This document shows positions 11,301 through 30,161 of a stretch of 64,000 nt of DNA, piece by piece. The stretch spans positions 288,001-352,000 of the forward strand of contig CAWDDT010000005.1 in assembly GCA_963801165.1 (NCBI GenBank). Reading direction: 5' to 3'. The DNA is from an uncultured bacterium. GTDB lineage: Bacteria > Actinomycetota > Acidimicrobiia > Spongiisociales > UBA5794. Under the pieces are notes generated by a model, which was given only the letters and a program-made list of their open reading frames with translations, did not search any database and was not told where the DNA came from. A program made the translations under genes and the position numbers. Every line of letters starts with the position of its first letter. Positions within the stretch are counted from its first letter, which is position 1.

Positions 11301-14300
11301 GGCGTCGTCGCCTGCGAGGACCGTCTGGGTGTCCGGGGTCTTGGCGACGGTTATCGCCGGGTCGATGACGTCGACGGCGGCGCTGTCGCTGTCGGTCACC
11401 GAACCGCCGGACGGGTCGTCGGCGGTCACATCGGCGACGTTGGTGAAATCAGCGGTGACTGCTGGCACCGTGCAGTCGTACGTCTCGGTGGCGCCGATAG
11501 GCAAGGCGGCGAAGGTAGCGTCGCAGGCCGGAGCCAGCACGTCGGTGACGACGACGTTGGAGAGTTGGGCATCGCCGCTGTTGGTGACGGCGATGGTGAA
11601 GGTCACGTCGGAACCGGTGAGCACGGTCTGGGTGACCGGGGTCTTGGTGATGCTGATCTCGGGGGCGATCACCTCGACGTCGGCCACGTCGGAATCCGTA
11701 ACCGGGGTCGGTGTCGCCGGGTGCTCGGCAACGACGACGGCGACGTTTGTGAGGTCGGCGGTGACGTTGTCGAGGGTGCAGCTGTAGGTGACGCTCTCCC
11801 CTGCCGCCAGTGACGGGTAAGTGGCGTCGCAGTTGGGGGCCTGGGCGTCGGTGACCACGACGTTGTCCAGGGAGACATCGCCGATGTTGGTGACGGTGAT
11901 GCCGAACGTTGCAGTCGTCCCACCGAGGATGGTCTGGGAGGGTGGGTTCTTGGCGATGTCGATCGTCGGGCTGACCACGTCGACATCGGCCGTGTCACCG
12001 TCGTTGACCGGGGCGCCGAGCGGGTCGTCACCGGTGACCAGGGCTGTGTTGGTGAAGTCGTCGGACCCGGCGGTCATCGTGCAGCTGTAGCTGGTGGAGG
12101 CGCCCGCCGCGAGTGCGCCGATGACGTTGTCGCAATCGGAGGCCAGAGCGTCGGAGACGGCAACGTTGGCGAGATCCACATCGCCGTTGTTGGTGACGGT
12201 GATGTCGAAGGTCACCGTGCTTCCGGCGACAGCCTGCTGGAGGTCCGGCGTCTTCTGGATGTCGATGCCGGGGTCGATGACGTCGACGGCGGCTGTGTCG
12301 CTATCGGTCACCGGGTTGGCGAGCGGGTCGTTGCCAGTGACCGTGGCGGTGTTGGTGAAGTCGGTACCGCCCGTGGTCATGGTGCACGAGTACGTCTCGG
12401 AGGCGCCCGTGGCGAGCGAGGCGAAGCTGCCGTTGCAGTTGGGGGCAAGCGGGTCGGAGACGGTCACGTCGGTGATGTCGACATCGCCGGTGTTGGTGAC
12501 GGTGATGTCGAAGGTCGCCGTTTCGCCTGCCACGATTTGCTGGCTGTCGGGGGTCTTGTCGATGGTGATCGCCGGGTTGACGACGGTGACGTCGGCGATG
12601 TCGGAATCGGTCACCGGGTTGCCGAGCGGGTCGTCGGCCGTGACCGTTGCGGTGTTGGTGAAGTCGTTCGTGCCGGCGGTCATCGTGCAGCTGTAGGTGG
12701 TGGAGGCGCCTGCCGCCAGGGTGCCGATCGTGGTGTCGCAGCCCGATGCCAGGGCATCGGTCACCGCAACGTTGCTAAGGCTCACGTCCCCGGTGTTGGT
12801 GACGGTGATGTCGAAAGTGACGGTGCCGCCGGCTGCGACGGTCTGCAGGTCCGGCGTCTTGTCGATCGTGATCGCCGGGCCGATGACATCGACAGCGGCC
12901 GTATCGGAGTCGGCGACCGGGTTGCCCAACGGGTCATCACCGGTAACCGAGGCGGTGTTGGTGAAATCGGCGGTGACTCCGGCGAGTGTGCACGAGTAAT
13001 CGGTGGAGACACCCGCGCCGAGCGTGCCGATGGTGGCGTCGCAGTCGGGCGCCAGAGCATCGGTGACCGTCACATTGTCGAGAGGAACGTCGCCGGTGTT
13101 GGCAACGGTGATGGTGAAGGTCGCATCGTCGCCACCGAGAATGGTCTGGAGGTCCGGGGTCTTGTCGATCGTGATCGCCGGGCCGATGACATCGACGTCG
13201 GCGGTGTCGCTGTCGGTGACCGCGTTGCCGAGCGGGTCGTCACCGGCCACAGAGGCGGTGTTGGTGAAGTCTGTGGAGCCCGCCGTCATGGTGCACGAGT
13301 ACGAGGTCGACGAACCAGCGGCGAGCGAGCCGACGTTGGCATCACAATCGGGCGCCAACACATCCGTCACCGCAACATCAGTCAGGTCGACGTCGCCGGT
13401 ATTCGCAACGGTGATATCGAAGGTCACCGTGTCCCCCGCCAGAGCCTGCTGTGTGTCGGGGGCCTTCTGGATGTCGATGGCCGGGTTGATGATGTCGACG
13501 TCGGCGGTGTCGGTGTCGCTGACCGGGTTGCCGAGCGGGTCGTCACCGGTGACTACGGCAGTATTGGTGAAGTCGACTGCCCCGGCCGTCATCGTGCACG
13601 AGTACGTGGTCGACGCGCCCGCAGCCAGCGGACCGATCGTGGCATCGCAGTTCGGCGCCACGGCGTCGGTAACCGCCACACCGTCGAGATCGACATCGCC
13701 TGCGTTGGTGACGGTGATGTCGAAGGGGACCGTGGCGCCTGCCAGAGCCTGCTGGAGGTTGGGGGTCTTGACAACGGTGATGGCCGGGTTGATCACGTCC
13801 ACGCCCGCGCTGTCGCTGTCGGTGACCGGGTTGCCGAGCGGGTCGTCACCGGTAACCGAGGCGGTGTTGGTGAAGTCTGTGGAGCCCGCCGTCATGGTGC
13901 ACGAGTACGTGGTCGAGGCACCCGCCGCCAGTGCGCCGACGGTTGTGTCGCAGTCCGGAGCGACGACATCGGCCACCGTCACGTCAGTCAGGTCCACGTC
14001 GCCGGTGTTGGTGACGGTGATATCGAACGTCACGGTGTCACCGGAAAGAGCCTGCTGTGTGCCGGGTGTCTTCTGAATGGCGATCGCCGGGTTGATGATG
14101 TCGACGTCGGCCGTGTCGGAGTCGGTCACCGGGTTGCCGAGCGGATCGTCACCTGTCACCACCGCGGTGTTGGTGAAATCGGATGCACCGGCGGTCATCG
14201 TGCAGGAGTAAGTCGCTCCGGCACCAACCACCAGGGTGACAAATGTTGCGTCACAGTCCGGAGCCAGCACGTCGGTCACGGCCACGTCGGTGAGGTTCAC

Positions 14301-17300
14301 ATCGCCTGTATTGGTGACCGTGATATCGAACGTCACCGTGTCACCGTCGTGAGCCTGCTGTGTGTCGGGCGTCTTTGCGACCGTGATCGCCGGGTTGATG
14401 ACGTCGACATCTGCCGTGTCCGTGTCGGTTACCGCGTTGCCCAACGGATCGTCACCGGTGACATCGGCAGTGTTGGTGAAGTCGGCGGTGACACCGGCGA
14501 CGGTGCAGCCGTAGGTCTCGATGGCGCCAACTGCGAGGGTGGCAAATGTCGCATCACAGTCCGGGGCCAGCGCATCGGTCACCGTCACGTCGGTCAGGTC
14601 CACATCGCCAGTGTTGGTGACCGTGATCGTGAACGTTGCATCGCCCCCGGCCACGACCTGTTGCAGGTCGGGGGTCTTCTGAATGGTGATCGCCGGGCCG
14701 ATGACGTCGACATCTGCGGTGTCGCCGTCGGTCACGGGGCTGCCCAGCGGATCGTCACCGGTGACATCGGCAGTGTTGGTGAAGTCGGCGATAACCCCAG
14801 CGACGGTGCAGCCGTAGGCCTCGGCGGCGCCAACTGCGAGGGTGGCGAATGCCGCATCACAGTCCGGGGCCAGCGCATCGGTCACCGTCACATCGGTCAA
14901 ATCCACGTCACCGGTGTTGGTCACCGTGATGGTGAACGTTGCGGTATCGCCGGCGAGGATGGTCTGCAAGTCGGGGGTCTTGTCGATGGTGATACCGGGG
15001 TTGATCACGTCCACAACGGCGGTGTCGGAGTCGGTCACCGGGCTGCCCAGCGGGTCATCGCCGGTCACCGTCACGTTGTTGGTGAAGTCGTCCGCGCCGG
15101 CGGTCATGATGCACGAGTAGCTGCTCGAGCCACCGGCAGCCAGCGAACCGATCGTGGCATCACAGTCCGGCGCAACCGCATCGCTCACGGTCACATTGGT
15201 CAGGTCCACATCGCCGGTGTTCGTCACCGTGATGTCAAACGTCACCGTGTCACCGTCGTGAGCCTGCTGGACATCCGGCGTCTTCTGAATGTCGATCGCC
15301 GGGTTGATCACATCCACATCGGCCGTGTCACTGTCGGTAACCGGGCTACCGAGCGGATCGTCACCGGTCACCGTCGCGGTGTTGGTGAAGTCATCCGCAC
15401 CGGCGATCACCGTGCACGAGTACGAGGTCGAGGCACCCGCAGCCAGCGTCCCAATGGCGGCGTCACAATCGGGAGCCACGGCATCGGTCACGGCAACGTC
15501 GGCCAGATCGACATCACCGGTGTTGGTCACTGTGACATCGAACGTCACCGTGTCGCCGACCAGCGCCTGCTGGACATCCGGCGTCTTCTGAATGTCGATC
15601 GCCGGGTTGATCACATCGACATCGGCCGTGTCGGAATCGGTAACCGGATTACCCAGCGGGTCATCGCCGGTCACCGTCACGTTGTTGGTGAAATCAACCG
15701 CACCGGCCGTCATGATGCACGAGTAGCTGCTCGAGGCACCCGCATCCAGAGCACCGACCGTGGCGTCACAGTCCGGAGCGACCGCATCGGTCACGGCCAC
15801 ATCGGTCAGGTCGACATCACCGGTGTTGGTCACCGTGATATCGAACGTGACAGTGTCACCGGCGTGGGCCTGCTGGGTGTCCGGGGTCTTCTGAATGTCG
15901 ATCGCCGGGTTGATCACGTCGACATCGGCAACATCGCTGTCGGAAACCCGGTTGCCGAGCGGATCGTTACCGGAGACCGAGGCGATGTTGGTGAAGTCGA
16001 GCGCACCGGCGTCCGTCGAGCAGTTGTAGGTGGTCGAGGCCCCGGCCGCCAGCGTGGCGAGCGAGGCATTGCAGGTCGGCGACATCAGGTCGGTGACCGC
16101 CACGTTGCTGAGATCTACGTCACCGGTGTTGGTCACCGTGATGCCGAAGGTCAACGTGCCGCCCGGCAGCGCCTGCTGGGTGTCCGGGGTCTTGGAGATC
16201 GTGATTGCCGGGTTGATCACATCGACATCGGCCGTGTCGCTGTCGGTCACCGGGTTGGCGAGCGGATCGTCACCCGTCACCGCAGCCGTGTTGGCGAAGT
16301 CATCCACACCGGCCGTCATGGTGCACGAATACGAGGTCGAGGCACCCGAAGCCAGCGAGCCGATCGTGGCGTCGCAGCCCGGCGCTACGGCATCGGTCAC
16401 GGCCACATCGGTCAAGTCGACGTCACCGGTGTTGGTCACCGTGATGTCAAACGTCACCGTGTCACCCGCCAGGGTCTGCTGCGTATCCGGAGTCTTGGAG
16501 ATCGCGATCGCCGGGTTGATCACATCGACATCGGCCGTGTCGCTGTCGGCCACCGGGTTGGCGAGCGGATCGTCACCCGTGACCGCAGCCGTGTTGGTGA
16601 AATCGGCGGTGACCCCGACGACCGTGCAGGTGTAGGTCTCGGTCGCACCTGCCGCCAGCGTGGCGAAGGTAGCGCCGCAATCCGGGGCGAGGACATCGCT
16701 GATCGTGACATCGGTCAGTGGCACGTCGCCCGTGTTGGTGACGGTGATCGTGAAGGTTGCATCGTCACCGGCAACGACGGTCTGGGTGTCGGGCGTCTTC
16801 TGAATGTCGAGGCCGGGGTTGATGGCGTCGACATCGGCGGTGTCGGAGTCGGACACCGGGTTGCCGAGCGGATCGTCACCGGCCACCGTTGCGGTGTTGG
16901 TGAAGTCCGTGGTGACTCCGGCGACGCTACAGGTGTATGTCTGAACGGCACCCACGGCCAACGCGGCAAACGTGGCGTCGCAATCCGGGACCAGAGCATC
17001 GGTGACCGACACGTCGGTCAGAGCGACGTCACCGCTGTTTGTCACCGTGATGGTGAAGGTCGCGTCGCCCCCGGCCAGCACCATCTGGTTGTCGGGAGTC
17101 TTTGCGATCGTGATTGCCGGGCCGATGACATCAACGTCGGCAGAGTCGCTGTCGGTGACCGTGTTGCCCACCTCGTCGTCGGCAGTAACGGTTGCGGTGT
17201 TGGTGAAGTCGGCGGTGACGCCAACCAATGTGCACGTGTAGGTGGTGGAGGCTCCGGCGGCGAGCGCCCCGATGGTGTTGTCACAGCCGGGGGCGCCGGG

Positions 17301-20300
17301 GTCGGTGACGACGACGCCGGTGAGGTCTTGCGGCCCCTGGTTGGTGACGGTGATCGTGAAGGCAGCGGTGCCGCCACCGACGACCTGCTGGTTCGCCGGG
17401 CCCTTGGCGATGGTGACCATGCCCGGATACGCATAGCCGAAGTCGACGTCGGCGACGGCGGCGTCGGCGACGGTGATCGCTTGGGGGTTGTTGCCGGTGG
17501 TCGAGGACATCCCGGCGGGCACGGTGGTCTCATCGACTGCAACCGTGTAGTCACCGTTGGGGACCGGCGGGAAGTTGTAGCTCCCGTCCACCGGGGTGGT
17601 GGCTGTGGCGACGACGGTGCCGGTGTCGTCACGTAGCTCGACCGTGATCCCGGCGAGCGGCGGCTCGACAGCATCGATGACAGTGTCGGCGTTCTCGTCG
17701 TTCCAGACGGTGCCGCTGATCGGGTAGGTGGGGAGGATGGCCCCGAAGTCGGCGGTGGCGAACGTGTCACCCGACTGGAGCGGGCTGGTTGCGACCGTTG
17801 TCGGTGTCGTCGGGACGTAGCCGGCGGGGAGGGAGGCCGTATCGACAACGGCGTCGTAGGCGCCCGGCGGCACGACGATGGAGTACGAGCCGTCGGCGGC
17901 AGTAACTGCAGATCCGATCGCGGTCCCGACTCCGTCGAAGACCGCGACGATGACACCACTGATGCCGGGCTCACCCGGATCCTGGACACCGTCGCCGTCG
18001 AGGTCGTTCCACACAAAGTCGCCGATGGTGACCGGAACATAGGCGCCTGCGTCGATGGTCGTGTCGGCGTCGCCGGAGATGACGGTGATCGGTGCCGTCT
18101 GCCCGGTTGCAGGGTCGGCGTCCGAGTCGGTGGCGTCGCTACCGACGTCGGCCGGGGAGAACTCGTAGGCGCCGGGGAGGACGAACTCCGCGACGTAGTT
18201 GCCCGGAGCCAGGGTGACGCTCCACAACCCGTTGCCGGCGGTGGTGTCGGTGGCGACCGGGGTGGCAGGATCGCCTGCGTCATAAACGTTGACGGTGGCT
18301 CCGACGATGCCGGGTTCGCCGGTGTCCTGGATGCCGTCGCCGTTGAGGTCGTCCCAGACCAGGTCGCCGACGGTGACCGGCTGGTAATAGCCGAAGTCGG
18401 CGTCGGTGTTGTCCTCGCCCTCGCCGAGGGTCACCGCATACGGCTCATTGCCGGTGGTGAGTACCGGGTTGCTGAACGGCAAGGTCGCCTCATTGACGTC
18501 GACGGTGTAGTCGCCGGGGGGCAGGTAGGTGAAGCTGTAAGCGCCGCCACCGGTGGTGACTGTGGTGGCCACTACCGCTCCGGTGCCGTCGAGCAGGTTG
18601 ACGGTGACACCGTCGAGACCCGGCTCACCGGGATCCGGGGTGCCGTCGCCGTTGAGGTCGTTCCACACGAAATCGCCGATCGAGGCCCTCTGGATGACAT
18701 CGGTGCTGTGGGTGTCGGTGTCGCTGGTCGGGTCGCCGTCGGTGTCGTCGCCGGTGACGGTAGCGGTGTTGACCAGCGGATCGGGATCTGTGGCCTGGAT
18801 GGTGTAGTCGGCGGTGAACACCCAGGTCTCGCCGGTTTCGAGCAGCCCGTCTCCGTCGTCTCCGCTGACGTAGGAGGCGGCGCCGGCGACATCGTCTGTG
18901 ACGGTGACGTTGGCAACCGGTGATCCGTCCGATGTCGAGTCATGGGACACGGTGAACCCGTAGGTGACGGTGTCTCCCACCAGCGCCGAGACCGGGCCGG
19001 TCTTGTTGATGACAAGCACCGGCAGGTGGTCGATGTCGGTCGAGTGGGTGTCGGTGGCCGCGGGCACGGAGTCGCCATCGAGATCGGTCCCCGTGACGGT
19101 GACGGTGTTGACCAACGGGTCGGCGTCGGTGCCGGCCACCGTGTAGCCAGCCTGGTACACCCAGGTCTCGGCGGCTTCGAGGAGCCCGTCGCCGTCGTCA
19201 CCGCTCACATAGGTGGCGCCGCCGGCGACATCGTCGCTCACCGCACCTACCGACACCGGCGAACCGTCCGAGCCGGGAGCGTGCGACACGGCAAAGGTGT
19301 AGGTCACGGTCTCGCCGATGGTCGCAGTCGCCGGCCCGGTCTTGTCCACCTGAAGGAGCGGAGCCCAATCGACGTCGACCGTCTCGGTGTCTGTGGCTTG
19401 CGGGATAGGGTCGCCGTCCGAGTCGGTGCCGTCGACGGTCACGTCGTTGGTGAGCGGGTCCGGGGTTGCTGCAGTGACGGTCTCGGTGGCGGTGTAGATC
19501 CAGGTCTCGTCGCTATCGAGGAGACCGTCGCCGTTGGTGTCGCCCGTCGGGCCGCTCAGCGTCAACCCGCGGGAGTCGACGACGGTGACCCCGGCGACCG
19601 GGGACATATCAGACGTCAGGGCATGGGCGACCGTGTACGTGTAGGTGACAGTGTCGCCGACCCCGGCCGGGGCAGGACCACCGACTTTGGTGACGGTGAG
19701 GGCAGGACGGAAGTCGACATCGACGCTGTGGCTGCCGGTGGCGTCGGTGATCGGGTCGCCGTTGCCGTCGGTGCCGGTGACGGTGGCCACGTTCACCAGC
19801 GGATCGGCGGTATCGAGCGGGACCGTGTAGTCGATCGTGTAGACCCAGGTCTCGCTGCCGTCGAGCAACCCGTCGCCGTCGGTGTCACCACTGAGTGTGG
19901 CCCCGGAGAGATCGACCACGTCGTCGCTGATCACCACGTCCACCGGGGAGCCGTCCGAGGCCGCGGTGTGGGTGACCGTGTATGTATAGGTGACGGTCTC
20001 GCCGACCGCAACCGGTCCGGCAGGGCCGTCCTTGACAACCTGGAGCTCTGGCTGGAAGTCGATCGGGTCGGTGACGTAGCCCGTGGTCGCGGGCAGGGTG
20101 TCGCTGAAGACCGTGGCCTCGTTCAGGATGTCCGTGACCGAGCCGTCGAATGTGTCGTCGACCTTGACCTGATAGGTGATCGTCATCGACTCGCCGACCG
20201 GGAGGTCGAAGCCGTCGGCGGCATCCACCAACACCGGCGGGACACCGTTGACGAGATCGGATTCGGCGCCGCCGGGGATGTTGTCCTCGACCAATGGGCT

Positions 20301-22583
20301 CGTGGTGGTCCCGGTACCCTCGATGAACAGGGTGGCCTGGTGGAAAATGCCGATGGTGAAGAAGGGGTTGGTGTCACAGACGTTGAGGGTCCAGGTCCCG
20401 GCTCCCGGCTGCCCGGCGAGCGACTCGAGTGCGGCAACGCCGACCGACCGCTCATAATCGGCAGGCGAGACGCTGTCCGCGCTGTTGTCGTCGAGTGGCC
20501 CTGTGGAATCCCCGTCGAAGAGCACGTCGTAGTTGTCGTCCCGGTCACCCGAGTTGCCCGAAGCCAGCACGACCTCGGTCCCGGCAGGCGAGGTCAGCGT
20601 CGCCCGGAGCTGGCCGCGGTCCGCATGGCTTGCGGTGAAGCCGAGATTGACATCCGAGATATCGGTCGCATCAGGTATGGAAAAGGTCACCCGGGTGGGC
20701 GCGCTGCAGTTCTGCGAGATGGTCAGATCCTGATCGACCAGCTGGCTCCACGACCCGGCCGTCGTGCCAACCGTCCATCCCGACACGAGCGTGGACTCGT
20801 CGACGTAGCTAGTCGCGGAAGGAAGCGGGTCGACTACAGAGATGTCGTCAATCGGGAACACGCCCGTGTTGTCCACGGTGACGGTGTAGGTGATGAGCTG
20901 GCCGGCGACTACAGGCCCGGTTGCGTCGGACGTCTTGGTGACCGTCACTTCCGGTTGGGCGACGGTGACGATCTCAGTCGCCGTGTCTGTGACCGTGGCA
21001 CCCGATGGCGCGGTACCGACGACAAATGCCGTGTTGGTGATGTGGCCGTTCTGCTCGTCTCCTGCGGTCACCGTGTAAGTGGCGGTGCACGTGAGGGTGT
21101 CGCCCGAGCTCAGCCCGGCGGGCATCGGCTCCGAACACGACAGGCTGCTCATACCGGGGAGCGGGTCAGTGATGGTGACGCCGGTGAGAGCGACGTTGCC
21201 GGTGTTGGTGGCGGCGAATTGGTATGTCAGGGTGTCACCGGTGGTCACCGTGGAAGAACCGTCCTCGTCGGCGTTGCCGATCAACGTCTTGCTGAGGTCG
21301 ATGTCGGCGAGCTCGGGCGGCACGCAGAACGAACCCGAGAGGTCGTAGAAGTTGATACCCGTGGAGTGACCCGTGTACGTCATCTGCCCCGTCGCCTGGT
21401 TCACCTGGTACAGGGCACCCGTGACAGTGGTTCCCCAGGTGTTGCCGTCGAGATCCGTTCCGAGCTGGACGTAATTTGGCGAGTTCTCGGTTGCGATATA
21501 CGTGAACACACCACTGTTGATGTTGTAGCTCCACCAATAGCCGGTGACCGCAGCGCTGTATCCGTCAACCACTGACCCGAACATGACAGGCTCCCCGTTG
21601 ACGGTGAGCACGGTGAGGTCGCCATAGTCGGGTCGCATGTCCCGGCCGAAAGCGGCTTCGAGGCCGTCCTCGGGTTGGTTGGGCGCCAACTGCTCCAGCG
21701 TGCCGGCCATGACCGCGGTTCCGTTGGTGGGATCGATGGCGATCCGGTAGATGCCGTTGGCGTCGCCGCCTATCTCGGTGGAGAAGTAGTAGTAGCCACC
21801 GTGATAGGTGGCCCCGGCAGACTCGAGGGTGCCGTTGATCTGGCCGGTGAGGTCGGCGAGTACACCTTCGGTGTCGTCGATGGGGTTCCACCAGTAGACA
21901 ACCGATCCGGATCCCCAGTAGACGAGACCGAGGTCGCTGTTGGATGCCAGGGCGTTCCGGTTCCCCGTGTTGAAGCTGGTCTGGAACTCGGCGGTGGCGA
22001 CACCGGTCCGGGTGTTGACGGAGTAGATGGTGTCGCCCGAGATGCCGATGATGTCGTTGGTGTCGCAGACGGCGGGAGGAACGGTGACGATGTTGACGGC
22101 GGCGCTGGCGCTGTTGTTGCCCGAATTGGGATCCGGCTGGTTGGAGGCGCTGATCCTTGCGGTGTTGGTTACGAAGGCGACGCTCGCCGCCTCGGCGGTG
22201 AGGTTCAGAGTATGGGTGGAACCGTTCGGCATGGACCCGACCGACCAGATGCCGGTAGCGCTGTCGTACGAACCCGTGGTCGCCGACGCAGACATGAAGG
22301 TGAACTCGGAAGGAAGAACGTCGCTCACGACGACGCCGGTTGTGTCACCGGGACCCGCGTTCGTAACAGTGACGGTGAACTCCACGGCGGTGCCGAGGAG
22401 GGCGGACCCGCTGTTGGCGACCTTGGTTATGGCGAGATCGGTAGCCCCGGGAGCAGCCGCGGCGGGCACCGCCCCGACCACCAATGACGTGATAGAAATG
22501 ACAAAAGCGGCAACTGCCGCCGCGCCCTTCTTGACACGAATCCCGAAGCGGGCATCACCGCTCGGGCTTGGGGAAGTACTCAT
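5400..22583 (-). CDS. Giant sortase-anchored repetitive surface protein / adhesin (DUF11/DUF7507-like Ig repeats, P-domain, SdrD-B-like, cadherin/Ig-like, LPXTG)
   Basis: Uninterrupted 5727-aa ORF. Signal peptide ends in VPAAA. Contains TITVTNTGDVDL repeats and IGDFVWNDLNGDG SdrD-B motifs. C-terminus is LPFTG + TM helix + RKRR. Confidence 0.93.
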   Translation of the reverse strand: MSTSPSPSGDARFGIRVKKGAAAVAAFVISITSLVVGAVPAAAAPGATDLAITKVANSGSALLGTAVEFTVTVTNAGPGDTTGVVVSDVLPSEFTFMSASATTGSYDSATGIWSVGSMPNGSTHTLNLTAEAASVAFVTNTARISASNQPDPNSGNNSASAAVNIVTVPPAVCDTNDIIGISGDTIYSVNTRTGVATAEFQTSFNTGNRNALASNSDLGLVYWGSGSVVYWWNPIDDTEGVLADLTGQINGTLESAGATYHGGYYYFSTEIGGDANGIYRIAIDPTNGTAVMAGTLEQLAPNQPEDGLEAAFGRDMRPDYGDLTVLTVNGEPVMFGSVVDGYSAAVTGYWWSYNINSGVFTYIATENSPNYVQLGTDLDGNTWGTTVTGALYQVNQATGQMTYTGHSTGINFYDLSGSFCVPPELADIDLSKTLIGNADEDGSSTVTTGDTLTYQFAATNTGNVALTGVTITDPLPGMSSLSCSEPMPAGLSSGDTLTCTATYTVTAGDEQNGHITNTAFVVGTAPSGATVTDTATEIVTVAQPEVTVTKTSDATGPVVAGQLITYTVTVDNTGVFPIDDISVVDPLPSATSYVDESTLVSGWTVGTTAGSWSQLVDQDLTISQNCSAPTRVTFSIPDATDISDVNLGFTASHADRGQLRATLTSPAGTEVVLASGNSGDRDDNYDVLFDGDSTGPLDDNSADSVSPADYERSVGVAALESLAGQPGAGTWTLNVCDTNPFFTIGIFHQATLFIEGTGTTTSPLVEDNIPGGAESDLVNGVPPVLVDAADGFDLPVGESMTITYQVKVDDTFDGSVTDILNEATVFSDTLPATTGYVTDPIDFQPELQVVKDGPAGPVAVGETVTYTYTVTHTAASDGSPVDVVISDDVVDLSGATLSGDTDGDGLLDGSETWVYTIDYTVPLDTADPLVNVATVTGTDGNGDPITDATGSHSVDVDFRPALTVTKVGGPAPAGVGDTVTYTYTVAHALTSDMSPVAGVTVVDSRGLTLSGPTGDTNGDGLLDSDETWIYTATETVTAATPDPLTNDVTVDGTDSDGDPIPQATDTETVDVDWAPLLQVDKTGPATATIGETVTYTFAVSHAPGSDGSPVSVGAVSDDVAGGATYVSGDDGDGLLEAAETWVYQAGYTVAGTDADPLVNTVTVTGTDLDGDSVPAATDTHSTDIDHLPVLVINKTGPVSALVGDTVTYGFTVSHDSTSDGSPVANVTVTDDVAGAASYVSGDDGDGLLETGETWVFTADYTIQATDPDPLVNTATVTGDDTDGDPTSDTDTHSTDVIQRASIGDFVWNDLNGDGTPDPGEPGLDGVTVNLLDGTGAVVATTVTTGGGAYSFTYLPPGDYTVDVNEATLPFSNPVLTTGNEPYAVTLGEGEDNTDADFGYYQPVTVGDLVWDDLNGDGIQDTGEPGIVGATVNVYDAGDPATPVATDTTAGNGLWSVTLAPGNYVAEFVLPGAYEFSPADVGSDATDSDADPATGQTAPITVISGDADTTIDAGAYVPVTIGDFVWNDLDGDGVQDPGEPGISGVIVAVFDGVGTAIGSAVTAADGSYSIVVPPGAYDAVVDTASLPAGYVPTTPTTVATSPLQSGDTFATADFGAILPTYPISGTVWNDENADTVIDAVEPPLAGITVELRDDTGTVVATATTPVDGSYNFPPVPNGDYTVAVDETTVPAGMSSTTGNNPQAITVADAAVADVDFGYAYPGMVTIAKGPANQQVVGGGTAAFTITVTNQGPQDLTGVVVTDPGAPGCDNTIGALAAGASTTYTCTLVGVTADFTNTATVTADDEVGNTVTDSDSADVDVIGPAITIAKTPDNQMVLAGGDATFTITVTNSGDVALTDVSVTDALVPDCDATFAALAVGAVQTYTCSVAGVTTDFTNTATVAGDDPLGNPVSDSDTADVDAINPGLDIQKTPDTQTVVAGDDATFTITVTNTGDVPLTDVTISDVLAPDCGATFATLAAGATETYTCTVVGVTADFTNTAAVTGDDPLANPVADSDTADVDVINPAIAISKTPDTQQTLAGDTVTFDITVTNTGDVDLTDVAVTDAVAPGCDATIGSLASGASTSYSCTMTAGVDDFANTAAVTGDDPLANPVTDSDTADVDVINPAITISKTPDTQQALPGGTLTFGITVTNTGDVDLSNVAVTDLMSPTCNASLATLAAGASTTYNCSTDAGALDFTNIASVSGNDPLGNRVSDSDVADVDVINPAIDIQKTPDTQQAHAGDTVTFDITVTNTGDVDLTDVAVTDAVAPDCDATVGALDAGASSSYSCIMTAGAVDFTNNVTVTGDDPLGNPVTDSDTADVDVINPAIDIQKTPDVQQALVGDTVTFDVTVTNTGDVDLADVAVTDAVAPDCDAAIGTLAAGASTSYSCTVIAGADDFTNTATVTGDDPLGSPVTDSDTADVDVINPAIDIQKTPDVQQAHDGDTVTFDITVTNTGDVDLTNVTVSDAVAPDCDATIGSLAAGGSSSYSCIMTAGADDFTNNVTVTGDDPLGSPVTDSDTAVVDVINPGITIDKTPDLQTILAGDTATFTITVTNTGDVDLTDVTVTDALAPDCDAAFATLAVGAAEAYGCTVAGVIADFTNTADVTGDDPLGSPVTDGDTADVDVIGPAITIQKTPDLQQVVAGGDATFTITVTNTGDVDLTDVTVTDALAPDCDATFATLAVGAIETYGCTVAGVTADFTNTADVTGDDPLGNAVTDTDTADVDVINPAITVAKTPDTQQAHDGDTVTFDITVTNTGDVNLTDVAVTDVLAPDCDATFVTLVVGAGATYSCTMTAGASDFTNTAVVTGDDPLGNPVTDSDTADVDIINPAIAIQKTPGTQQALSGDTVTFDITVTNTGDVDLTDVTVADVVAPDCDTTVGALAAGASTTYSCTMTAGSTDFTNTASVTGDDPLGNPVTDSDSAGVDVINPAITVVKTPNLQQALAGATVPFDITVTNAGDVDLDGVAVTDAVAPNCDATIGPLAAGASTTYSCTMTAGAVDFTNTAVVTGDDPLGNPVSDTDTADVDIINPAIDIQKAPDTQQALAGDTVTFDITVANTGDVDLTDVAVTDVLAPDCDANVGSLAAGSSTSYSCTMTAGSTDFTNTASVAGDDPLGNAVTDSDTADVDVIGPAITIDKTPDLQTILGGDDATFTITVANTGDVPLDNVTVTDALAPDCDATIGTLGAGVSTDYSCTLAGVTADFTNTASVTGDDPLGNPVADSDTAAVDVIGPAITIDKTPDLQTVAAGGTVTFDITVTNTGDVSLSNVAVTDALASGCDTTIGTLAAGASTTYSCTMTAGTNDFTNTATVTADDPLGNPVTDSDIADVTVVNPAITIDKTPDSQQIVAGETATFDITVTNTGDVDITDVTVSDPLAPNCNGSFASLATGASETYSCTMTTGGTDFTNTATVTGNDPLANPVTDSDTAAVDVIDPGIDIQKTPDLQQAVAGSTVTFDITVTNNGDVDLANVAVSDALASDCDNVIGALAAGASTSYSCTMTAGSDDFTNTALVTGDDPLGAPVNDGDTADVDVVSPTIDIAKNPPSQTILGGTTATFGITVTNIGDVSLDNVVVTDAQAPNCDATYPSLAAGESVTYSCTLDNVTADLTNVAVVVAEHPATPTPVTDSDVADVEVIAPEISITKTPVTQTVLTGSDVTFTIAVTNSGDAQLSNVVVTDVLAPACDATFAALPIGATETYDCTVPAVTADFTNVADVTADDPSGGSVTDSDSAAVDVIDPAITVAKTPDTQTVLAGDDATFTITVTNTGDVDLTDVAVTDAQAPGCDGTIGNLAAGETASYGCTVVGVTTGFTNVADVTATDPLGNPVGDSDDAVVIVSAPAIEIVKTADTPVIVIGVDATFTITVTNVGTDPLTDVSVTDALAPGCDAAIGDLASGEATTYSCTMPALTADVTNTASVVGTHPLGGTVTDEDTADVNVIAPAITLTKTADNTPVLAGQNATFTITVTNSGDVDLTGVQVTDPAAPDCDATIGDFAVGANTSYTCTVPAVTADFTNTASVVGDDSLGNTVSDSDDAAVDVVNPAITIDKTPDSQFVTSGSDATFTITVTNTGDVDLTDVAVTDALVPACDATVGDLAAGASTSYSCVATGVGADFTNTASVVGTHPAGGTVTDEDTADVVVINPAISLAKDPALQQLLAGEDASFTITVSNTGDSPLTDVTISDPRAPGCDAVIPNLGIGASQTVNCTVADVTADFTNTASVVATHPAGGTVTASDSADVVVLVPQIDIQKTPDTQLAAPGSDVTFTITVTNAGVVPLIDVAVTDALAPACDTTIAALAVGESTSYDCTVNVVTDDFTNVAAVTATDTVGNPATDSDSADVDVVNPAVSIAKTPDLQSVGLNGTPTFTIGVTNTGDIDLSNVVVTDALAPACDATFASLAVGATETYACDGTATAADFTNTASVTADSAVGPVSDSDTADVTVLLPGIDIQKTPDTQLVGPGGTATFTITVTNAGATPLNNITVSDPLAPACDATIAALAIGESTSYDCDVTGVAADFTNTASVTADDPLGNPVADSDTADVDFVDPAITVSKTPNLQTLLAGEDASFTVTVTNTGDTDLTNIVVSDPLAPGCDATFASLTIGAGETVTCTVTGVPASFTNVATATADTPIGTQVSDSDDAAVEIVTPGVEIQKTPDTQQIHSGEDVTFTITVTNTGDQELVDLTVTDALTPACDNTIAALAVGESTSYDCTAAGVIADFTNIASVAGSDVLGNPVSDSDDAAVDVIAPGLAIEKTPGNQAIVVNGTATFTITVSNTGDVDLTGVTVSDPLAPDCDTTVGDLAVGATTTVTCSLAGVTADFTNTATATGTDPIGATVTGSDTADVTVVVPGIEIQKTPDLQQARTGDTVDFTITVTNTGGVALSNVTVTDATAPACDNVVGDLAVSDTTSYTCSMTAGAADFTNTADVTGDDPIGNPVTDSDSAYVDVIAPAISIQKSPDGQTVVAGDAATFTIEVANTGDVDLTGVTVTDALVPACDGTIGDLAAGASTSYTCTVSDVTAGFTNTADVSGTDPIGLEVTDSDTADVTVLVPGIDIQKTPDIQTVVEGDDATFTIIVTNTGQTDLTKVAVTDPLVPACDNAIGDLPVGSPPVSYTCVVTATDDFTNTATVTATDPLGNALSDEDNADVVALARGNLSGTIAHDVAGDGVIDPSDIGLDGIPMAATWAGLDGVFGTADDEVLNTTTDGNGNYGFDLVPPGLYEITVDTGALPAGVDFPTVDPDGTLDSATTLTLPPGSTGDTIDFAYTATGSIGDQVFLDLDGNGVQDPGEPGIGGVDVTVTWFGPDGVIGGGDDLVFTTTTTSDGRYEVDGLPAGDFSVVIGNVPAGLTGATSQMVTLVAAEARDDADFPLAGSGSIGDQVFEDVDRNGVFGAGEPGVAGVTVNVTWAGGDGVIGTADDIVFTTVTDPDGRYLVDGLPAGGYRVEMDDATIPADLGTAPPVTLTLGAGETDLDVDFPLVGNRPPVAVDDSAVTDQDTPVVISVLSNDSDPDGHAFAVDSTTPPLNGTVVVNPDGTITYTPNSGFVGTDTFTYTICEVGGPVGGVPATGLCDTATVTVTVNKVNQPPGPEASFQSVVVGDPLSPIPVSDPDGGPVTVTYVSGELPPGITLNPDGTFSGVTEEIGTYQIVVQVCDDDVPQICILHTHTIAVTPVTLPGPEDPPGGDEPPPDTLPFTGGNFGDLFIAALMMLSAGAGMVLYSRKRREM
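7115..17420 (-). repeat. 34 tandem ~303-bp (101-aa) Ig-like repeats, each with two Cys
   Basis: Counted 34 K(T/x)P-x-x-Q-type repeat starts. Spacing of 303 bp read directly (e.g. 15281 vs 15584). Boundaries approximate. Confidence 0.9.
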
Positions 22584-23845: not shown

Positions 23846-25768
23846 ATGCGAATAGCGCGCCTGGCAATCGCTCAGATACTGGTGATCGGGATTCTCGTTG
23901 GATCTGCACCAGCCGCGTCTGCAGGAATTGCAGCTGATGTGACCTGGACAATGGTTGATCTACACGCTGAGCAGGTCCTCTATGACCAGAGCAGCGGCAC
24001 CGTCGTCGCTGCCGTGCGTCCGAGCGATCCCGACCACGCAAACGAAGTACTCGCTTTCGACCCCGTGACGCTGAGTGTGCTGTGGTCCGTTCCCTTTCCC
24101 TCCCAGCCGGACTTGATCGCCATCTCGGATGATGGATCGAGCGTCTACGTCGGACTCGGCGATAGCAATAGCATCGCCCGGATCGGGACGGCATCGCATT
24201 CGGTTGTGGACACCATTCAGTTACCCGACGATCCACGCTGGGGTCCGGTCGAGGCCGAAGACATCGCGGTGGCCCCCGGGAACCCAGATCTGATCGCCGT
24301 CGCATTGGAGCGAGGGGGTATCACCAGCGCGGGCATCACAGTTTTCGATGATGGCGTCGCCCTACCCGATGTCGCGCACGCGTCTCCGTACCCAGACTCA
24401 ATTGCCTTTGGTGCGAACGCCGGAGTCCTATATGGGCTCAATACCAAAACATCGGGATTCGACTTCGTCCGAATGACAGTCTCTTCGAGCGGCGTGACCG
24501 TGGATGACTTCACACGCTCATTCGTGATTGGCTCCCACAACTCGATGGTTTACGCCGACGGAAGGCTCTACTTCGAGAACGCTTGGGTCGCGGATCCGTC
24601 AATCCCGGAGCTAGTGGACCGGTACACGACCGAGGAAACGGTCAACGTGTTGGTGCCGGTCCCATCCCTCGATCTGGCAATGGGGATATCGAGCACCACG
24701 GTCCCAACCATCGACACTCTCACGCTGTTCGACCTGGACGGGTTCAATGTCGTCGATGAGCTCAACTTCACCCACGGACAGGTCTACGGCGTGCACAACG
24801 CCACGACTATCGAAGGCCACGGCATCGTCGCCGCATATTCCGAGAAGGTTCTAATCGCTGGCTTCTTTCCCGGGGGCGACATCACGGGTCGAGTCACGGA
24901 CGCCTCCTCGGACGAACCGATCTCTGAGGTCTGCGTCTATGCGACCGATGACGAGACTTACATCGTGAGCCAGACCGAGACGCTCGACGACGGCAGCTAC
25001 AGCATGCGCGTTCCCCCCGGCACCTGGCGAATTGCGTTCGGCGATTGCCACTACGCCGACTACTTCTGGGAATGGCACAACAACCAGGTCTTCTACAACT
25101 TCGCCAAGGCGACACCGGTCACCGTGAACGACGGTGACACCGTGACGGTTAACGGCGCGCTCGAAAGAACATACACCGACTCGCTCGACAGCGTCTTCCG
25201 GGAGCAGATCTGGTGGATGCATGACACCGGCATCACTTCGGGCTGTGCACCCGAGGCATACTGCCCGGACGGGACCGTGACCCGGGGTCAGATGGCGGCG
25301 TTCCTGGTCCGTGCCCTCGGGCTGACCGCAACCTCCAGCATCGACTTCACCGACGACGACGGCAACATCTTCGAGCAGAACATCAACAAGCTCGCCACCG
25401 CAGACATCACCAAAGGCTGCAACCCACCAACCAACGACAAGTTCTGCCCCAACGACCCTGTCACCCGCGGACAGATGGCAGCGTTTCTGGTCCGGGCGCT
25501 CGGCTTGACCGCAACATCCGATGTCGACTTCGTCGACGACAACGGCAGCGTGTTCGAGGAGAACATCAACAAGCTCGCCACCGCCGGCATCACCAAAGGG
25601 TGCAACCCACCGACCAACGACAAGTTCTGCCCCAACGACCCTGTCACCCGCGGGCAAATGGCGGCGTTCCTATTCCGGGCGCTCGAGAGCGACTTTGCGC
25701 TATCGGCACCCGGCCGTTCGCTACGGGTCGAGGTACCGGCACCCGATCTGGATGCCCCCCTGCGCTGA
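23846..25768 (+). CDS. Secreted protein: beta-propeller-like N-terminus, carboxypeptidase-regulatory-like domain, three SLH-like domains
   Basis: Signal peptide ending in ASA. GDITGRVTDA..PISEVCV motif. Three GC....(F/Y)CP...VTRGQMAAFL repeats. Confidence 0.85.
   Translation: MRIARLAIAQILVIGILVGSAPAASAGIAADVTWTMVDLHAEQVLYDQSSGTVVAAVRPSDPDHANEVLAFDPVTLSVLWSVPFPSQPDLIAISDDGSSVYVGLGDSNSIARIGTASHSVVDTIQLPDDPRWGPVEAEDIAVAPGNPDLIAVALERGGITSAGITVFDDGVALPDVAHASPYPDSIAFGANAGVLYGLNTKTSGFDFVRMTVSSSGVTVDDFTRSFVIGSHNSMVYADGRLYFENAWVADPSIPELVDRYTTEETVNVLVPVPSLDLAMGISSTTVPTIDTLTLFDLDGFNVVDELNFTHGQVYGVHNATTIEGHGIVAAYSEKVLIAGFFPGGDITGRVTDASSDEPISEVCVYATDDETYIVSQTETLDDGSYSMRVPPGTWRIAFGDCHYADYFWEWHNNQVFYNFAKATPVTVNDGDTVTVNGALERTYTDSLDSVFREQIWWMHDTGITSGCAPEAYCPDGTVTRGQMAAFLVRALGLTATSSIDFTDDDGNIFEQNINKLATADITKGCNPPTNDKFCPNDPVTRGQMAAFLVRALGLTATSDVDFVDDNGSVFEENINKLATAGITKGCNPPTNDKFCPNDPVTRGQMAAFLFRALESDFALSAPGRSLRVEVPAPDLDAPLR
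25172..25690 (+). repeat. SLH-like repeats, 183-bp period
   Basis: VTRGQMAAFL codons start at 25277, 25460 and 25643. Confidence 0.85.
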
Positions 25769-25850
25769 CAGACCGAGGGTTCTCCACGACCCGCACTTCA
25801 TCTCCCGGACGACGCCGTCCAGACACCGGTGGGGTGGTATCTTCGCGTTG

Positions 25851-25916
25851 ATGAAGTCCGTGCAGTCGTTCGCCTGTTGCTGTTCGAATGGCTCACGCGT
25901 GGGCGAAATCTGCTAG
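25851..25916 (+). CDS. Leaderless poly-Cys leader peptide MKSVQSFACCCSNGSRVGEIC
   Basis: TGG-TATCTT extended -10 at 25835-25843, 7 nt before the ATG. Three consecutive Cys codons plus a terminal Cys. Lies directly upstream of cysK. Confidence 0.8.
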   Translation: MKSVQSFACCCSNGSRVGEIC

Positions 25917-25944
25917 CCACAAAACCCACAACGATTACGCAACC

Positions 25945-25972
25945 GGCCCGCACCAGCGGGCCATTTTCATTT
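25945..25972 (+). terminator. Attenuator terminator upstream of cysK
   Basis: GGCCCGC-ACCA-GCGGGCC followed by ATTTTCATTT. Confidence 0.75.
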
Positions 25973-25982
25973 GGAGGATCTC

Positions 25983-26918
25983 ATGGCACGTATCTACTCA
26001 GACATCACCGAAACCATCGGCAACACTCCCCTCGTTGCGCTCCGAAACATGCAGCCGGTCGGTGCCGCACGCATCGCCGTGAAGCTCGAGTCGTTCAACC
26101 CGCTGTCGAGTGTCAAGGACCGCATCGGCGTGAACATGATCAATGAGGCCGAGAAGGACGGGCGCATCACCCCGGGGGAGACCACGCTTGTGGAGCCCAC
26201 CTCCGGCAACACCGGGATCGGTCTCGCATTCGCCGCGGCCGCCAAGGGATACAAGCTCGTCCTCACCATGCCCGACACGATGAGCATCGAACGCCGCCGT
26301 CTCCTCGCCTTCCTCGGCGCCGAGCTCGTACTCACCGCGGGGACCGGAGGAATGAAGGGAGCAATCGACAAGGCAGAGGAATTGCGCGGGGAGATCCCCG
26401 GTGCGGTGGTCCTCCAGCAGTTCGCCAACCCGGCCAACCCCGACATCCACCGGCGTACAACGGCTGAGGAGATTTGGGCCGACACCGACGGCGAGGTCGA
26501 CATCGTCGTCGCCGGGGTGGGAACCGGCGGCACCGTAACCGGCGTGGGCGAGGTGCTGAAAGCTCGCAAGCCGTCAGTCCAAATCGTGGCAGTCGAACCG
26601 GATGACTCACCGGTGCTCTCAGGGGGCGCTCCCGGGCCGCACAAGATCCAGGGAATCGGCGCAGGGTTCGTGCCGGAGGTGCTCAACACCGCGGTGATCG
26701 ACGAGGTCGTACGGGTCTCCAACGACGACGCCATCGAGACATCCCGTGCACTCGCCCGTGGCGAGGGAATCCTGGCCGGGATCTCGGGCGGTGCCGCGTT
26801 GTGGGCGGCGCTCGAGGTGGCGGGACGACCCGGGAATGCCGACAAGCTGATCGTGGTCGTGCTCCCGGATGCCGCCGAGCGCTATCTGTCGACCGCCCTG
26901 TTCGAAGGCATCGCGTGA
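25983..26918 (+). CDS. cysK: Cysteine synthase A
   Basis: [16 protein letters not shown] (PLP Lys), [26 protein letters not shown] and ERYLST. GGAGG SD. Confidence 0.95.
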
Positions 26919-27622
26919 TGAGCGCCTCCGGACCGGGGATGCGGGCTCGGATGCGCGAGGACATCGCCGCGGTATTCGAGCGTGACCCTGCCGCTCGCAG
27001 TGTCCCTGAGGTCGTGTTCAACTACCCGGGGATGCACGCCATCTGGATGCATCGGCTCGCCCACCGTCTCTGGAGGAGGAACCGGAGCTTCCTGGCCCGG
27101 CTGCTGAGCCACGTCAACCGCTTCATCACCGGGGTCGAGATCCATCCCGGAGCGACCATCGGCCGGCGCTTCGTCATCGACCACGGCATGGGTGTGGTGA
27201 TCGGCGAGACCACCGAGATCGGGGACGACGTGATGCTCTACCAGGGAGTGACCCTGGGCGGGACAAGCCGCAAGAAGGAGAAACGCCACCCGACTCTCGA
27301 AGATGGGGTTGTCGTCGGCGCCGGCGCCAAGGTCCTGGGCGCCGTCACGGTGGGAACCGGCGCCAGGATCGGCGCCGGCGCCATCGTGGTGCGCGACGTT
27401 CCGCCCGGCGCCACCGTCGTCGGTGTGGCCGGGCGGGTCATCGAACGCCGAAAGCACGACGAGCACCACGTGAACCTGACGGAGAGCAAGGGCGACCACG
27501 ACGTTCGGGTTCTCGAGGTGTTGGTCGACCGGGTCAGCGACCTCGAGATGATCGTCAACGACGCCGTGCTCGCCGTCCCCGGCAACGGCTCCGAGACCTA
27601 CTCGCAAGGCGCCGGGATCTAG
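26918..27622 (+). CDS. cysE: Serine O-acetyltransferase
   Basis: [37 protein letters not shown] and KRHPTL. TGATG coupling to cysK. Confidence 0.95.
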
Positions 27623-28601: not shown

Positions 28602-29042
28602 TCAAGCGCGCCATCGGCGGTGCTCGGGGAGCGTCACGTCACCGTAGCCGTTGCAGCGGGCCTCGCCGACAAGTAGCTCGAACAGGACGTAGCGGTCCGC
28701 AGGCGGGTAGGAACACGCGGCGACCACGAGGGCACGAACGTTCGGGTCGGTGATCTCACGGCCGTCGCCCCTGACGAAGAACTCGCCGCCCGAGCCGGCG
28801 TTGTCCGGCACACCGTTGTGGATGGCGTAGACCACGCGTTCGCGGAGGTCGATGCCCTTGGGCGAGGTCGGTTCCATGAACAGGAACAACCCGGTGTCGC
28901 TGATGATCGGGGTTACCGGGTGCACCCGCGGGCTGCCGTTCTTGCGCTGGGTCGCCAGATAGGCCGGTCGCTCGCGGAGCAGTTCCGCGCCAAACGCAGC
29001 GAGCTCGGGCTCGAGTATGGAGAAGTCGGCCCAGGTGATCAT
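28602..29042 (-). CDS. Pyridoxamine 5'-phosphate oxidase-like (split-barrel flavin/F420-binding) protein
   Basis: AYLATQRKNGSPRVHPV and SPKGIDLR. ATGA overlap with the upstream gene. Confidence 0.8.
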   Translation of the reverse strand: MITWADFSILEPELAAFGAELLRERPAYLATQRKNGSPRVHPVTPIISDTGLFLFMEPTSPKGIDLRERVVYAIHNGVPDNAGSGGEFFVRGDGREITDPNVRALVVAACSYPPADRYVLFELLVGEARCNGYGDVTLPEHRRWRA

Positions 29043-30001
29043 CCGGTGGTCTCCGTAAACCCGTTGTCCCGCATCCACTCGTCGTTGTAGATCTTCGAGA
29101 CGTAGTTGCGCCCGGAGTCGGGGAGCATGACGACCACCAGATCGTTGGGACGGCGCCGGGCCACGCGGAGCGCACCGGCGACTGCCAGGCCTCCGGAACC
29201 GCCGGCGAACACGCCTTCCACCCTGACCAGACGCCGGGTCATCTCAAACGTCTCGGCGTCGGTGACCATCTCGTACTCGTCGACAACGCTTGGATCGAAG
29301 GTCTCGGGCCAGAAGTCCTCCCCCACTCCCTCGGTCAGGTAGGTGGCGACGTCGTCCTCAGTGTCGGCGGTGTAGATCGATCCCTCGGGGTCGGCGCCGA
29401 CCACCACCAATCCCGGTTTGCGTTCCTTCAGGTATCGGCCGGTCCCGCAAATCGTTCCGCCGGTGCCGATGCCAACCACGAGCACACCGATCGCCCCGTC
29501 GGTCTGCTCCCAGATCTCAGGACCTGTCTGTGCGTAGTGTGCCTCCGGGTTCGCCGGGTTCGAGTACTGGTCGGGACGGTACGAGTTCGGTGTCTCCCGG
29601 GTCAGCCGGTCGGCGACCGAGTAATACGACCGCGGGTCGTCCGGCTCGACGTCGGTGGGGCACACCACTACTTCGGCGCCGTAGGCGCGCAGAAGCGCCC
29701 GCTTCTCTTCGGACTGCTTGTCTGCCATCACCGCGATCAACTTGTAGCCCCGTAGCGCCGCCACCATCGCCAGACCGACTCCGGTGTTGCCGCTGGTCGG
29801 CTCGATGATCGTGCCCCCGGGCTCCAGCCATCCGTTGCGCTCGGCCCGCTCGATCATGCCGAGAGCGATCCGGTCTTTGACCGACCCCCCGGGGTTCATG
29901 TACTCGAGCTTGGCCACCAGGTTCCCCGGTGGATGCAGCCGGCCGAGACGGACCAGAGGCGTCCCGCCGACCGCGTCGATGATGTCCTCACGGATGTCCA
30001 T
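29039..30001 (-). CDS. Cystathionine beta-synthase-like PLP enzyme (catalytic core only)
   Basis: [42 protein letters not shown] and SKIYNDEWM. Start moved to ATG at 30001. Confidence 0.88.
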   Translation of the reverse strand: MDIREDIIDAVGGTPLVRLGRLHPPGNLVAKLEYMNPGGSVKDRIALGMIERAERNGWLEPGGTIIEPTSGNTGVGLAMVAALRGYKLIAVMADKQSEEKRALLRAYGAEVVVCPTDVEPDDPRSYYSVADRLTRETPNSYRPDQYSNPANPEAHYAQTGPEIWEQTDGAIGVLVVGIGTGGTICGTGRYLKERKPGLVVVGADPEGSIYTADTEDDVATYLTEGVGEDFWPETFDPSVVDEYEMVTDAETFEMTRRLVRVEGVFAGGSGGLAVAGALRVARRRPNDLVVVMLPDSGRNYVSKIYNDEWMRDNGFTETTG

Positions 30002-30040
30002 ACGGTCCGGGAGGCTAGTGGCGTGGACGACCATTGCCAC

Positions 30041-30161
30041 CACCTTTGTCGCTCCGCTCCTCGTCCTCCTGAAGAGGGGGACATGACGTTGGCTGCCCCA
30101 CCCACCCCTTTACTTCTCCCTCTGGGACAAGTGGCCGAGCGACGCGAAGGTCGATGAGGGC
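30041..30161. repeat. Oppositely oriented pair of family-C palindromic intergenic repeats
   Basis: The minus-strand copy CCCTCATCGACCTTCGCGTCGCTCGGCCACTTGTCCC aligns with 62624-62658. A degenerate + copy is at 30041-30082. Confidence 0.6.

Follow-up and report, generated by a model that had tools for sequence, protein, structure and literature searches.

Directly upstream of cysK and cysE in the window, by which we mean the whole 64,000-nt stretch of DNA analyzed here, lies a short open reading frame (sORF) rich in cysteine codons, and the question raised by this arrangement is whether, and by what means, translation of such a leader could govern the genes that follow. The preliminary description of the locus had read it as a complete trp-style attenuator, in which stalling at the Cys codons frees an antiterminator (segments 2:3) and so prevents formation of a terminator (segments 3:4). 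In our judgment the cysK-cysE leader is probably a classical ribosome-stalling transcription attenuator for cysteine, sensed as charged tRNA-Cys. The core of the earlier reading is supported by conservation, reading frame, spacing and six sister leaders, but its 1:2 helix is not, and the label complete trp-style is therefore too strong. The elements of the locus, in window coordinates, are the following:

25835-25837 (TGG) and 25838-25843 (TATCTT), plus strand: extended -10 promoter box, predicted from sequence, 7 nt 5' of the ATG.
25851-25916, plus strand: leader sORF MKSVQSFACCCSNGSRVGEIC, with its ATG at 25851, 21 codons and a TAG at 25914-25916, and no Shine-Dalgarno (SD) sequence upstream.
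25875-25883, plus strand: Cys codons 9-11 (TGT TGC TGT), the predicted stall site.
25899-25904, plus strand: segment 2 (GTGGGC), predicted to form the 5' side of the antiterminator, 15 nt past the last Cys of the run.
25911-25913, plus strand: late Cys codon (Cys21), adjoining the stop codon.
25917-25944, plus strand: C/A-rich linker of 28 nt, with 12 C and 2 G.
25945-25962, plus strand: terminator hairpin 3:4, with 7 G-C pairs and the loop ACCA (-15.0 kcal/mol); its 5' arm is segment 3.
25963-25972, plus strand: U-rich tail ATTTTCATTT, interrupted, with 6 U in 9 nt; the RNA 3' end is predicted at about 25969-25971.
25973-25977, plus strand: SD sequence GGAGG of cysK, 10 nt outside the hairpin.
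25983-26918, plus strand: cysK, cysteine synthase A (TIGR01139, 455 bits against a cut-off of 351).
26918-27622, plus strand: cysE, serine O-acetyltransferase (TIGR01172, 247 bits against a cut-off of 211), its start overlapping the cysK stop.

The extended -10 box, the ATG and the Cys-rich frame are present in the sequence as first described, as are the two downstream genes, both above their NCBIfam cut-offs, and the 3:4 hairpin with its U-rich tail at 25945-25972, with the qualification that this tail begins with an A and is then interrupted. The leader sORF holds four Cys in its 21 codons (Cys 9-11 and 21), and ORFs encoding Cys-Cys-Cys make up 42 of the 31,948 genomic ORFs that start with ATG and span 10-35 codons (0.13%). 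A sigma-70 scan of this region of the window returned no two-hexamer promoter site; the transcript is predicted to start at or near the sORF ATG, and hence to be leaderless. Rfam covariance models identified no cis-regulatory family at the leader, a tRNA being the only match at gathering score in the window, and the two sub-threshold matches at 25700-26100 were both irrelevant. One terminator-like site was found in 800 nt, against a mean of 0.6 in shuffled sequence, such that the hairpin by itself does not rise above chance, and minimum-energy folding of the whole leader of the window is not unusual (z -1.12). Also within the window are a cystathionine beta-synthase-like paralogue at 29039-30043, 2 kb downstream on the opposite (minus) strand, and, at 5400-22583 on the minus strand, a repeat-rich protein of 5,727 aa that is probably secreted or surface located and ends in what we take to be a sortase-like LPxTG motif.

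From the anatomy, conservation, reading frame and gene identities, which are observed, and from folds and spacing, which were computed, we infer a start site, translation, stalling, termination and a cysteine response for this leader as follows. Transcription would begin on or close to the ATG, with immediate loading of a ribosome. When Cys-tRNA is ample, the ribosome would clear codons 9-11 and cover segment 2 (25899-25904), whereupon the hairpin at 25945-25962 would fold and RNA polymerase would stop near 25970. When Cys-tRNA is scarce, a ribosome stalled on codons 9-11 would leave segment 2 to pair with segment 3 as the latter emerges, the terminator would not fold in time, and cysK-cysE would be transcribed.

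Relatives of the leader were sought through the CysK protein, and the loci were thus chosen independently of the leader itself. Orthologues of cysK were found in 31 of 401 genomes of the order and in one further genome (G036), giving 32 loci, of which 31, the window's included, were fetched and one (G236) was left out. Thirty loci, again counting the window, were informative, L053, with 56 nt of upstream sequence, being dropped. Among the other rows of the analysis, L109 and L152 were set aside as too short. Distribution of cysK across the order is patchy, the same 31 of 401 genomes comparing with 18 of the 249 that are well assembled. The 31 fetched CysK proteins form one clade in a quick tree (SH-aLRT 99), and the loci are therefore kin rather than independent trials.

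Conservation of the Cys codons in homologous leaders, which had been named beforehand as a check, was found at every informative locus: all 30 carry a Cys-rich, ATG-started sORF of 21-28 codons in which the Cys codons are clustered. The same sORF test was positive at none of 25 paralogue loci (one of which, L022, comes from the unpublished genome G050 and enters no other result), at none of seven cysK loci belonging to different orders within the class, and at 6 of 79 outgroup cysK loci, two of these six resembling real Cys leaders; the outgroup derives from a named-genome search that yielded 80 loci with no actinobacterial cysK among them. Poly-Cys sORFs (CCC and CCCCC), a G-C hairpin and a U-rich tail were observed upstream of cysK at L106 (Candidatus Eisenbacteria) and L108, and the CysK proteins of both fall outside this order's clade. 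Across the 30 leaders, TGY triplets number 150 in frame versus 15 and 16 in the other two frames, and Cys makes up 20.6% of residues, compared with 0.9% in the long ORFs of the genome. The number of Cys per leader peptide (2-7) and their spacing vary, as does the peptide outside the Cys run and an RNA-constrained AGE block, and a Pfam search of the leader peptide gave no match. A TAnnnT box lies 5-12 nt 5' of the sORF ATG at each of the 29 loci with enough upstream DNA, with a TG extension in 12 of these 29; genome-wide, such a box precedes about 2 in 100 short ATG ORFs (528 versus 31,948, the size limits of the two counts differing slightly). Directly after cysK comes cysE in 30 of 31 loci, the remaining one stopping at a contig edge. 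As a further observation, UGU accounts for 82 of the 150 Cys codons in cysK leaders, for 88 of 150 in a second Cys family described below, and for 30% of those in long ORFs; the genome encodes one tRNA-Cys(GCA) and one tRNA-Sec, and wobble decoding could raise the starvation sensitivity of UGU.

The stall geometry of these leaders was modeled by folding each RNA as far as the terminator loop while the ribosome-covered part was held unpaired, with an assumed footprint reaching from 13 nt upstream of the P-site to 10 nt beyond the A-site. Placing the ribosome on the Cys run leads to antiterminator capture of segment 3 with a probability of at least 0.7 in 28 of 30 leaders, where shuffled sequences give a mean probability of 0.54, and in 15 of the 30 the antiterminator energy is better than that of shuffles at p<=0.05. 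In 26 of 30, given the assumed footprint size, capture is lost once the ribosome has moved 0-5 codons past the end of the Cys run, and the gap from Cys run to segment 2 is 6-19 nt in 29 of 30. At least four inner pairs, formed between the 3' end of the ORF and the linker, are enclosed by 27 of the 30 antiterminators, a longer hairpin that the preliminary description had missed, the linker serving in most relatives as the 3' side of these inner stems. Segments 2, 3 and 4 are altered together in L045 and L049 with 2:3 pairing kept, and segment 2 differs in register or sequence between subclades of the CysK tree while its partner, segment 3, stays the same. When columns are fixed, covariation of 2:3 is modest: 75% of cells are paired, versus 34-45% when the alignment is slid, with five double changes, and the pairing is matched or exceeded by 55 of 500 shuffles, among sequences that are kin.

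In the window, the 2:3 helix drawn in the preliminary description (GTGGGC at 25899-25904 with GCCCGC at 25946-25951) is real, comprising 6 bp with one G-U, and can form about 8 nt of transcription ahead of 3:4. Its computed probability is 0.89-0.99 when a ribosome occupies Cys 9-11 and segment 4 has yet to emerge, and falls to 0.14 with the ribosome on Cys21 or the stop codon. The 1:2 helix fared otherwise. The pairing originally proposed (25869-25877 with 25899-25907) can be drawn at -6.0 kcal/mol, but its pair probability is only 0.00-0.06, for 25864-25872 is taken up in a competing helix with 25885-25893 (-8.5 kcal/mol), and it was rejected as a main fold. In a transcript ending just past segment 2, that segment pairs with 25856-25863 (P 0.94, versus 0.75 in shuffles; p 0.13), and across the family its upstream pairing has a mean probability of 0.79 versus 0.72 for shuffles, reaching p<=0.05 in 3 of 30; no conserved 1:2 protector stood out from shuffles among the 30 leaders.

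Further leaders of this general form are present in the same genome. A scan for a -10 box followed by a short ORF gave 1,178 candidates, of which 38 also had a U-tailed hairpin, and in 7 of these 38 the amino acid encoded by the putative sensor codons is cognate to the gene downstream: the window leader, a second Cys leader, and leaders of trpS, pheS, leuS, a DAHP synthase gene and metY. Besides the window leader, they are:

G000:C5:39527-39670 (L137:528-670), plus strand: second poly-Cys leader, predicted to be leaderless, with six consecutive Cys, a 10-bp antiterminator and a clean U tract.
G000:C11:28770 (L185), plus strand: Met/Cys-rich leader with a GTG start before metY, with a terminator.
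G000:C11:110167, minus strand: Trp-Trp leader before trpS, with a terminator and a predicted antiterminator.
C4:157343, plus strand: Phe/Tyr-rich leader before the DAHP synthase gene, with a terminator and a predicted antiterminator.
C6:171884, plus strand: Phe-Ala-Phe leader before pheS, with a terminator and a predicted antiterminator.
C9:180452, minus strand: Leu-Leu leader before leuS, with a terminator; the same folding model gave no antiterminator here.

The second Cys leader precedes a PLP gene of the cysteine-synthase family (below the CysK and CysM cut-offs), followed by TusA-like and DsrE-like genes. Of the order's 401 genomes, 115 carry this PLP gene; 30 loci of these carriers were examined, and 29 were informative. 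A Cys sORF is present in all 29 (28 with ATG, one with GTG), at least six U in 26, and capture at a probability of at least 0.7 in 26, with p<=0.05 in 17; 2:3 is paired in 81% of cases, with a U-A/C-G swap at one pair. When the genome was searched with a covariance model built from the 30 cysK leaders, no further copy of the cysK leader family was found, and the second Cys leader was the next-best match (E 0.017). The same model matches all 29 second-family loci at E<1, and a common origin of both Cys families is likely, with the caveat that shared Cys codons may explain part of these matches. A covariance search of 121 genomes yielded 18 inspected matches outside the training set: five second-Cys-family leaders, one trpS leader, one lone similar hairpin, and 11 without a leader. 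The terminators of the metY leader and the second Cys family are closely alike, which suggests that a single scaffold has been reused with different sensor codons. Assignment of the genome to the Actinomycetota is supported by Pup and five WhiB genes; RbpA was searched for in the genome and not found.

The terminator stem is present in all 30 cysK leaders, with A-U in place of G-C in two, and its core is the sole consensus helix of the 30-sequence alignment; likewise, RNAalifold applied to the 30 leaders recovered the terminator and not 2:3. Of the stem covariation suggested as a check, the alignment shows this substitution in two terminators and, for 2:3, the modest signal described above. 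A conserved GG after segment 3 was considered as a feature needing 2:3 and was rejected, since in most copies it also forms the upper stem of the terminator. Folded at full length with a ribosome stalled on them, 28 of 30 leaders still give the terminator a probability above 0.5; since the terminator is favored at equilibrium, the switch must be kinetic. At least five U are found within 9 nt of tail in 25 of 30 leaders, and four or fewer in the other five.

Such interrupted tails are one reason to ask whether cysteine might be sensed as proposed while termination depends on Rho or NusG. On this view polymerase would pause at the hairpin, and Rho would load on the C-rich linker whenever the ribosome leaves it uncovered. 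The genome does encode Rho (TIGR00767, above cut-off), and the linker averages 43% C and 14% G over the 30 leaders. In the available portions of the sources, Rho is proposed for mycobacterial cys leaders, in a prediction called weak (Seliverstov, 2005; PMC1262725), and termination in Mycobacterium tuberculosis is described as mostly Rho dependent (10.1101/2022.06.01.494293). Against these points, the linker lies within the inner stems of the antiterminator in 27 of 30 leaders, and U tracts in the sister Cys family are canonical. A tnaC-type Rho-dependent attenuator uses a long, unstructured, C-rich rut site; rut sites span some 60-80 nt, and the linker here, though C-rich, is short for one at 22-35 nt. 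Moreover, a ribosome stalled on codons 9-11 would leave the linker exposed and so favor termination, opposite to what a biosynthetic operon requires. We consider Rho-dependent termination unlikely.

A second alternative takes as its model the Mycobacterium smegmatis leader Ms5788A, which is the only poly-Cys leader whose mechanism has been dissected (10.1101/834739, available text). There, as the preliminary description had stated, the studied mechanism is SD sequestration; applied to this locus, pairing would hide the SD of cysK and a stalled ribosome would free it. Partial pairing of the SD is indeed predicted when the terminator is folded (P 0.69 for the window), but all 30 leaders place the SD 8-22 nt beyond the hairpin. 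Opening the ribosome-binding site is costlier in the terminator than in the antiterminator state in 2 of 30 leaders and cheaper in 17, with medians of 7.3 versus 8.0 kcal/mol (5.0 versus 6.0 in the window), and in the sister Cys family the distance from hairpin to start is widely variable. With the SD outside the stem and its site no more open when the ribosome is stalled, an effect of the wrong sign, SD sequestration was rejected as a candidate, and we find translational attenuation at cysK highly improbable.

To return to transcription attenuation, it might be that the family works in this manner while the copy in the window has a decayed antiterminator, its hairpin acting as a mostly constitutive brake. 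Segment 2 of the window reads GTGGGC where most relatives have GCGGGC, and can alternatively pair with CCCAC in the linker; its antiterminator encloses three inner pairs only, is no better than shuffles (p 0.44) and is among the weakest of the family, with a barrier to the terminator state of 7.8 kcal/mol compared with a family median of 10.9. The closest relative, L002, is weaker still (P 0.66, p 0.90, barrier 4.6). Set against decay are the high probability of 2:3 before segment 4 emerges, an intact Cys run, frame, spacing, -10 box and terminator, and the compact 6-bp antiterminator design that L003 and L048 share with the window; loss of function in this one copy accordingly seems to us about as improbable as SD-based control. 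Least credible of all is that the peptide itself matters, as a small Cys-rich metal- or redox-binding product followed by an ordinary terminator, for although leader peptides hold up to seven Cys and late Cys codons are common, Cys number and spacing vary, other residues are poorly conserved and without a Pfam match, the inspected loci all precede cysteine synthase genes, and the sister leaders change amino acid with the pathway.

Late Cys codons, which occur in 24 of 30 leaders and often lie within the inner stem of the antiterminator, may have been retained through common descent or because they take part in RNA pairing. A ribosome at the first late Cys covers at least half of segment 2 in all 24 leaders that have one, while a ribosome at the stop codon does so in 9 of 30 only. 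The two-stop part of a broader and more speculative reading, possible but in our view rather doubtful, is based on these figures. In that reading the order controls its amino acids by a kit of leaderless attenuators, of which this genome would have at least seven, one scaffold serves Cys and Met by a swap of sensor codons, and the cysK leader is a two-stop device: stalling on the first run would open the operon, and a second Cys cluster near the stop would hold the ribosome on segment 2 and enforce termination. If this were so, one codon would have opposite outputs at two places, and the threshold might be sharpened without a 1:2 protector. Irrespective of that reading, the two Cys families (30 and 29 members) offer a clear terminator/antiterminator anatomy and natural compensatory variants, so that the claim of attenuation is directly testable with reporters, and they suggest tight coupling of transcription and translation on leaderless RNAs in this uncultured order.

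Among the most similar known systems are the mycobacterial leaderless polycysteine sORFs, which were described previously (Shell, 2015; PMC4633059, available text). Ms5788A and Rv2334A, the latter before the same gene pair, cysK1-cysE, resemble the present leader in having consecutive Cys codons ahead of cysteine genes and in sensing by ribosome stalling, according to the accessible parts of Canestrari et al. (10.1101/834739), who state that attenuation by a uORF in response to cysteine was previously undescribed and leave open the mechanism at loci other than Ms5788A. Unlike Ms5788A with its sequestered SD, the leader studied here has its SD outside the conserved antiterminator and terminator, and its Cys run lies in the middle of the ORF, compared with a C-terminal position in the mycobacterial sORFs. 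Mycobacterial Cys leader peptides had been predicted earlier, without conserved terminator hairpins, in a paper whose available text also covers actinobacterial trp attenuators (Seliverstov, 2005; PMC1262725). More recently, mRNAs at poly-C sORF loci of M. tuberculosis (cysK1, cysA2, subI and cysT) were found to rise on cysteine depletion and the loci were read as transcriptional attenuators, the mechanism being proposed, in the text available, without terminator/antiterminator structure or leader mutants (PMC13402693).

Other leaders of the phylum provide context. The ilvB1 leader of M. tuberculosis is a classical attenuator, which gives a precedent within the phylum, and the cysteine cases are called translational in the available part of that source (PMC13236596). 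In Streptomyces lividans, leaderless leuL2, trpL, ilvL and metL attenuators are listed, none of them, in the available text, assigned to cysteine, with the metL peptide holding a Cys (PMC8079986). The accessible portions of PMC13096801 and PMC2965389 contain no terminator-type Cys case, and those of 10.1101/2022.06.01.494293 nothing on cysteine. Our literature search, which covered main texts and few subscription journals, returned neither a Cys leader with an intrinsic terminator and antiterminator nor any account of the present leaders in this lineage, although a prediction may already be in print.

T-box and SAM (S-box) leaders also cause premature termination before sulfur amino-acid genes, namely the cys and met genes of Firmicutes, and sense uncharged tRNA or SAM directly; the present leader would share with them termination ahead of such genes and has no Rfam match. 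Also related are the classical leader-peptide transcription attenuators of E. coli, trpL, hisL, leuL, pheL and thrL, a textbook list from which, to our knowledge, cysteine is absent. Like these, the cysK-cysE leader has an sORF with cognate codons and, ahead of the first gene, a predicted antiterminator and intrinsic terminator that exclude each other; unlike them, it would sense cysteine, shows no conserved 1:2 protector distinguishable from shuffles, and in most copies carries a second Cys cluster near the stop. Judged by its sequence, the leader is not of the Ms5788A type and bears the features of a classical attenuator save a clear 1:2 protector, such that a principle which is itself old is here predicted to operate for cysteine.
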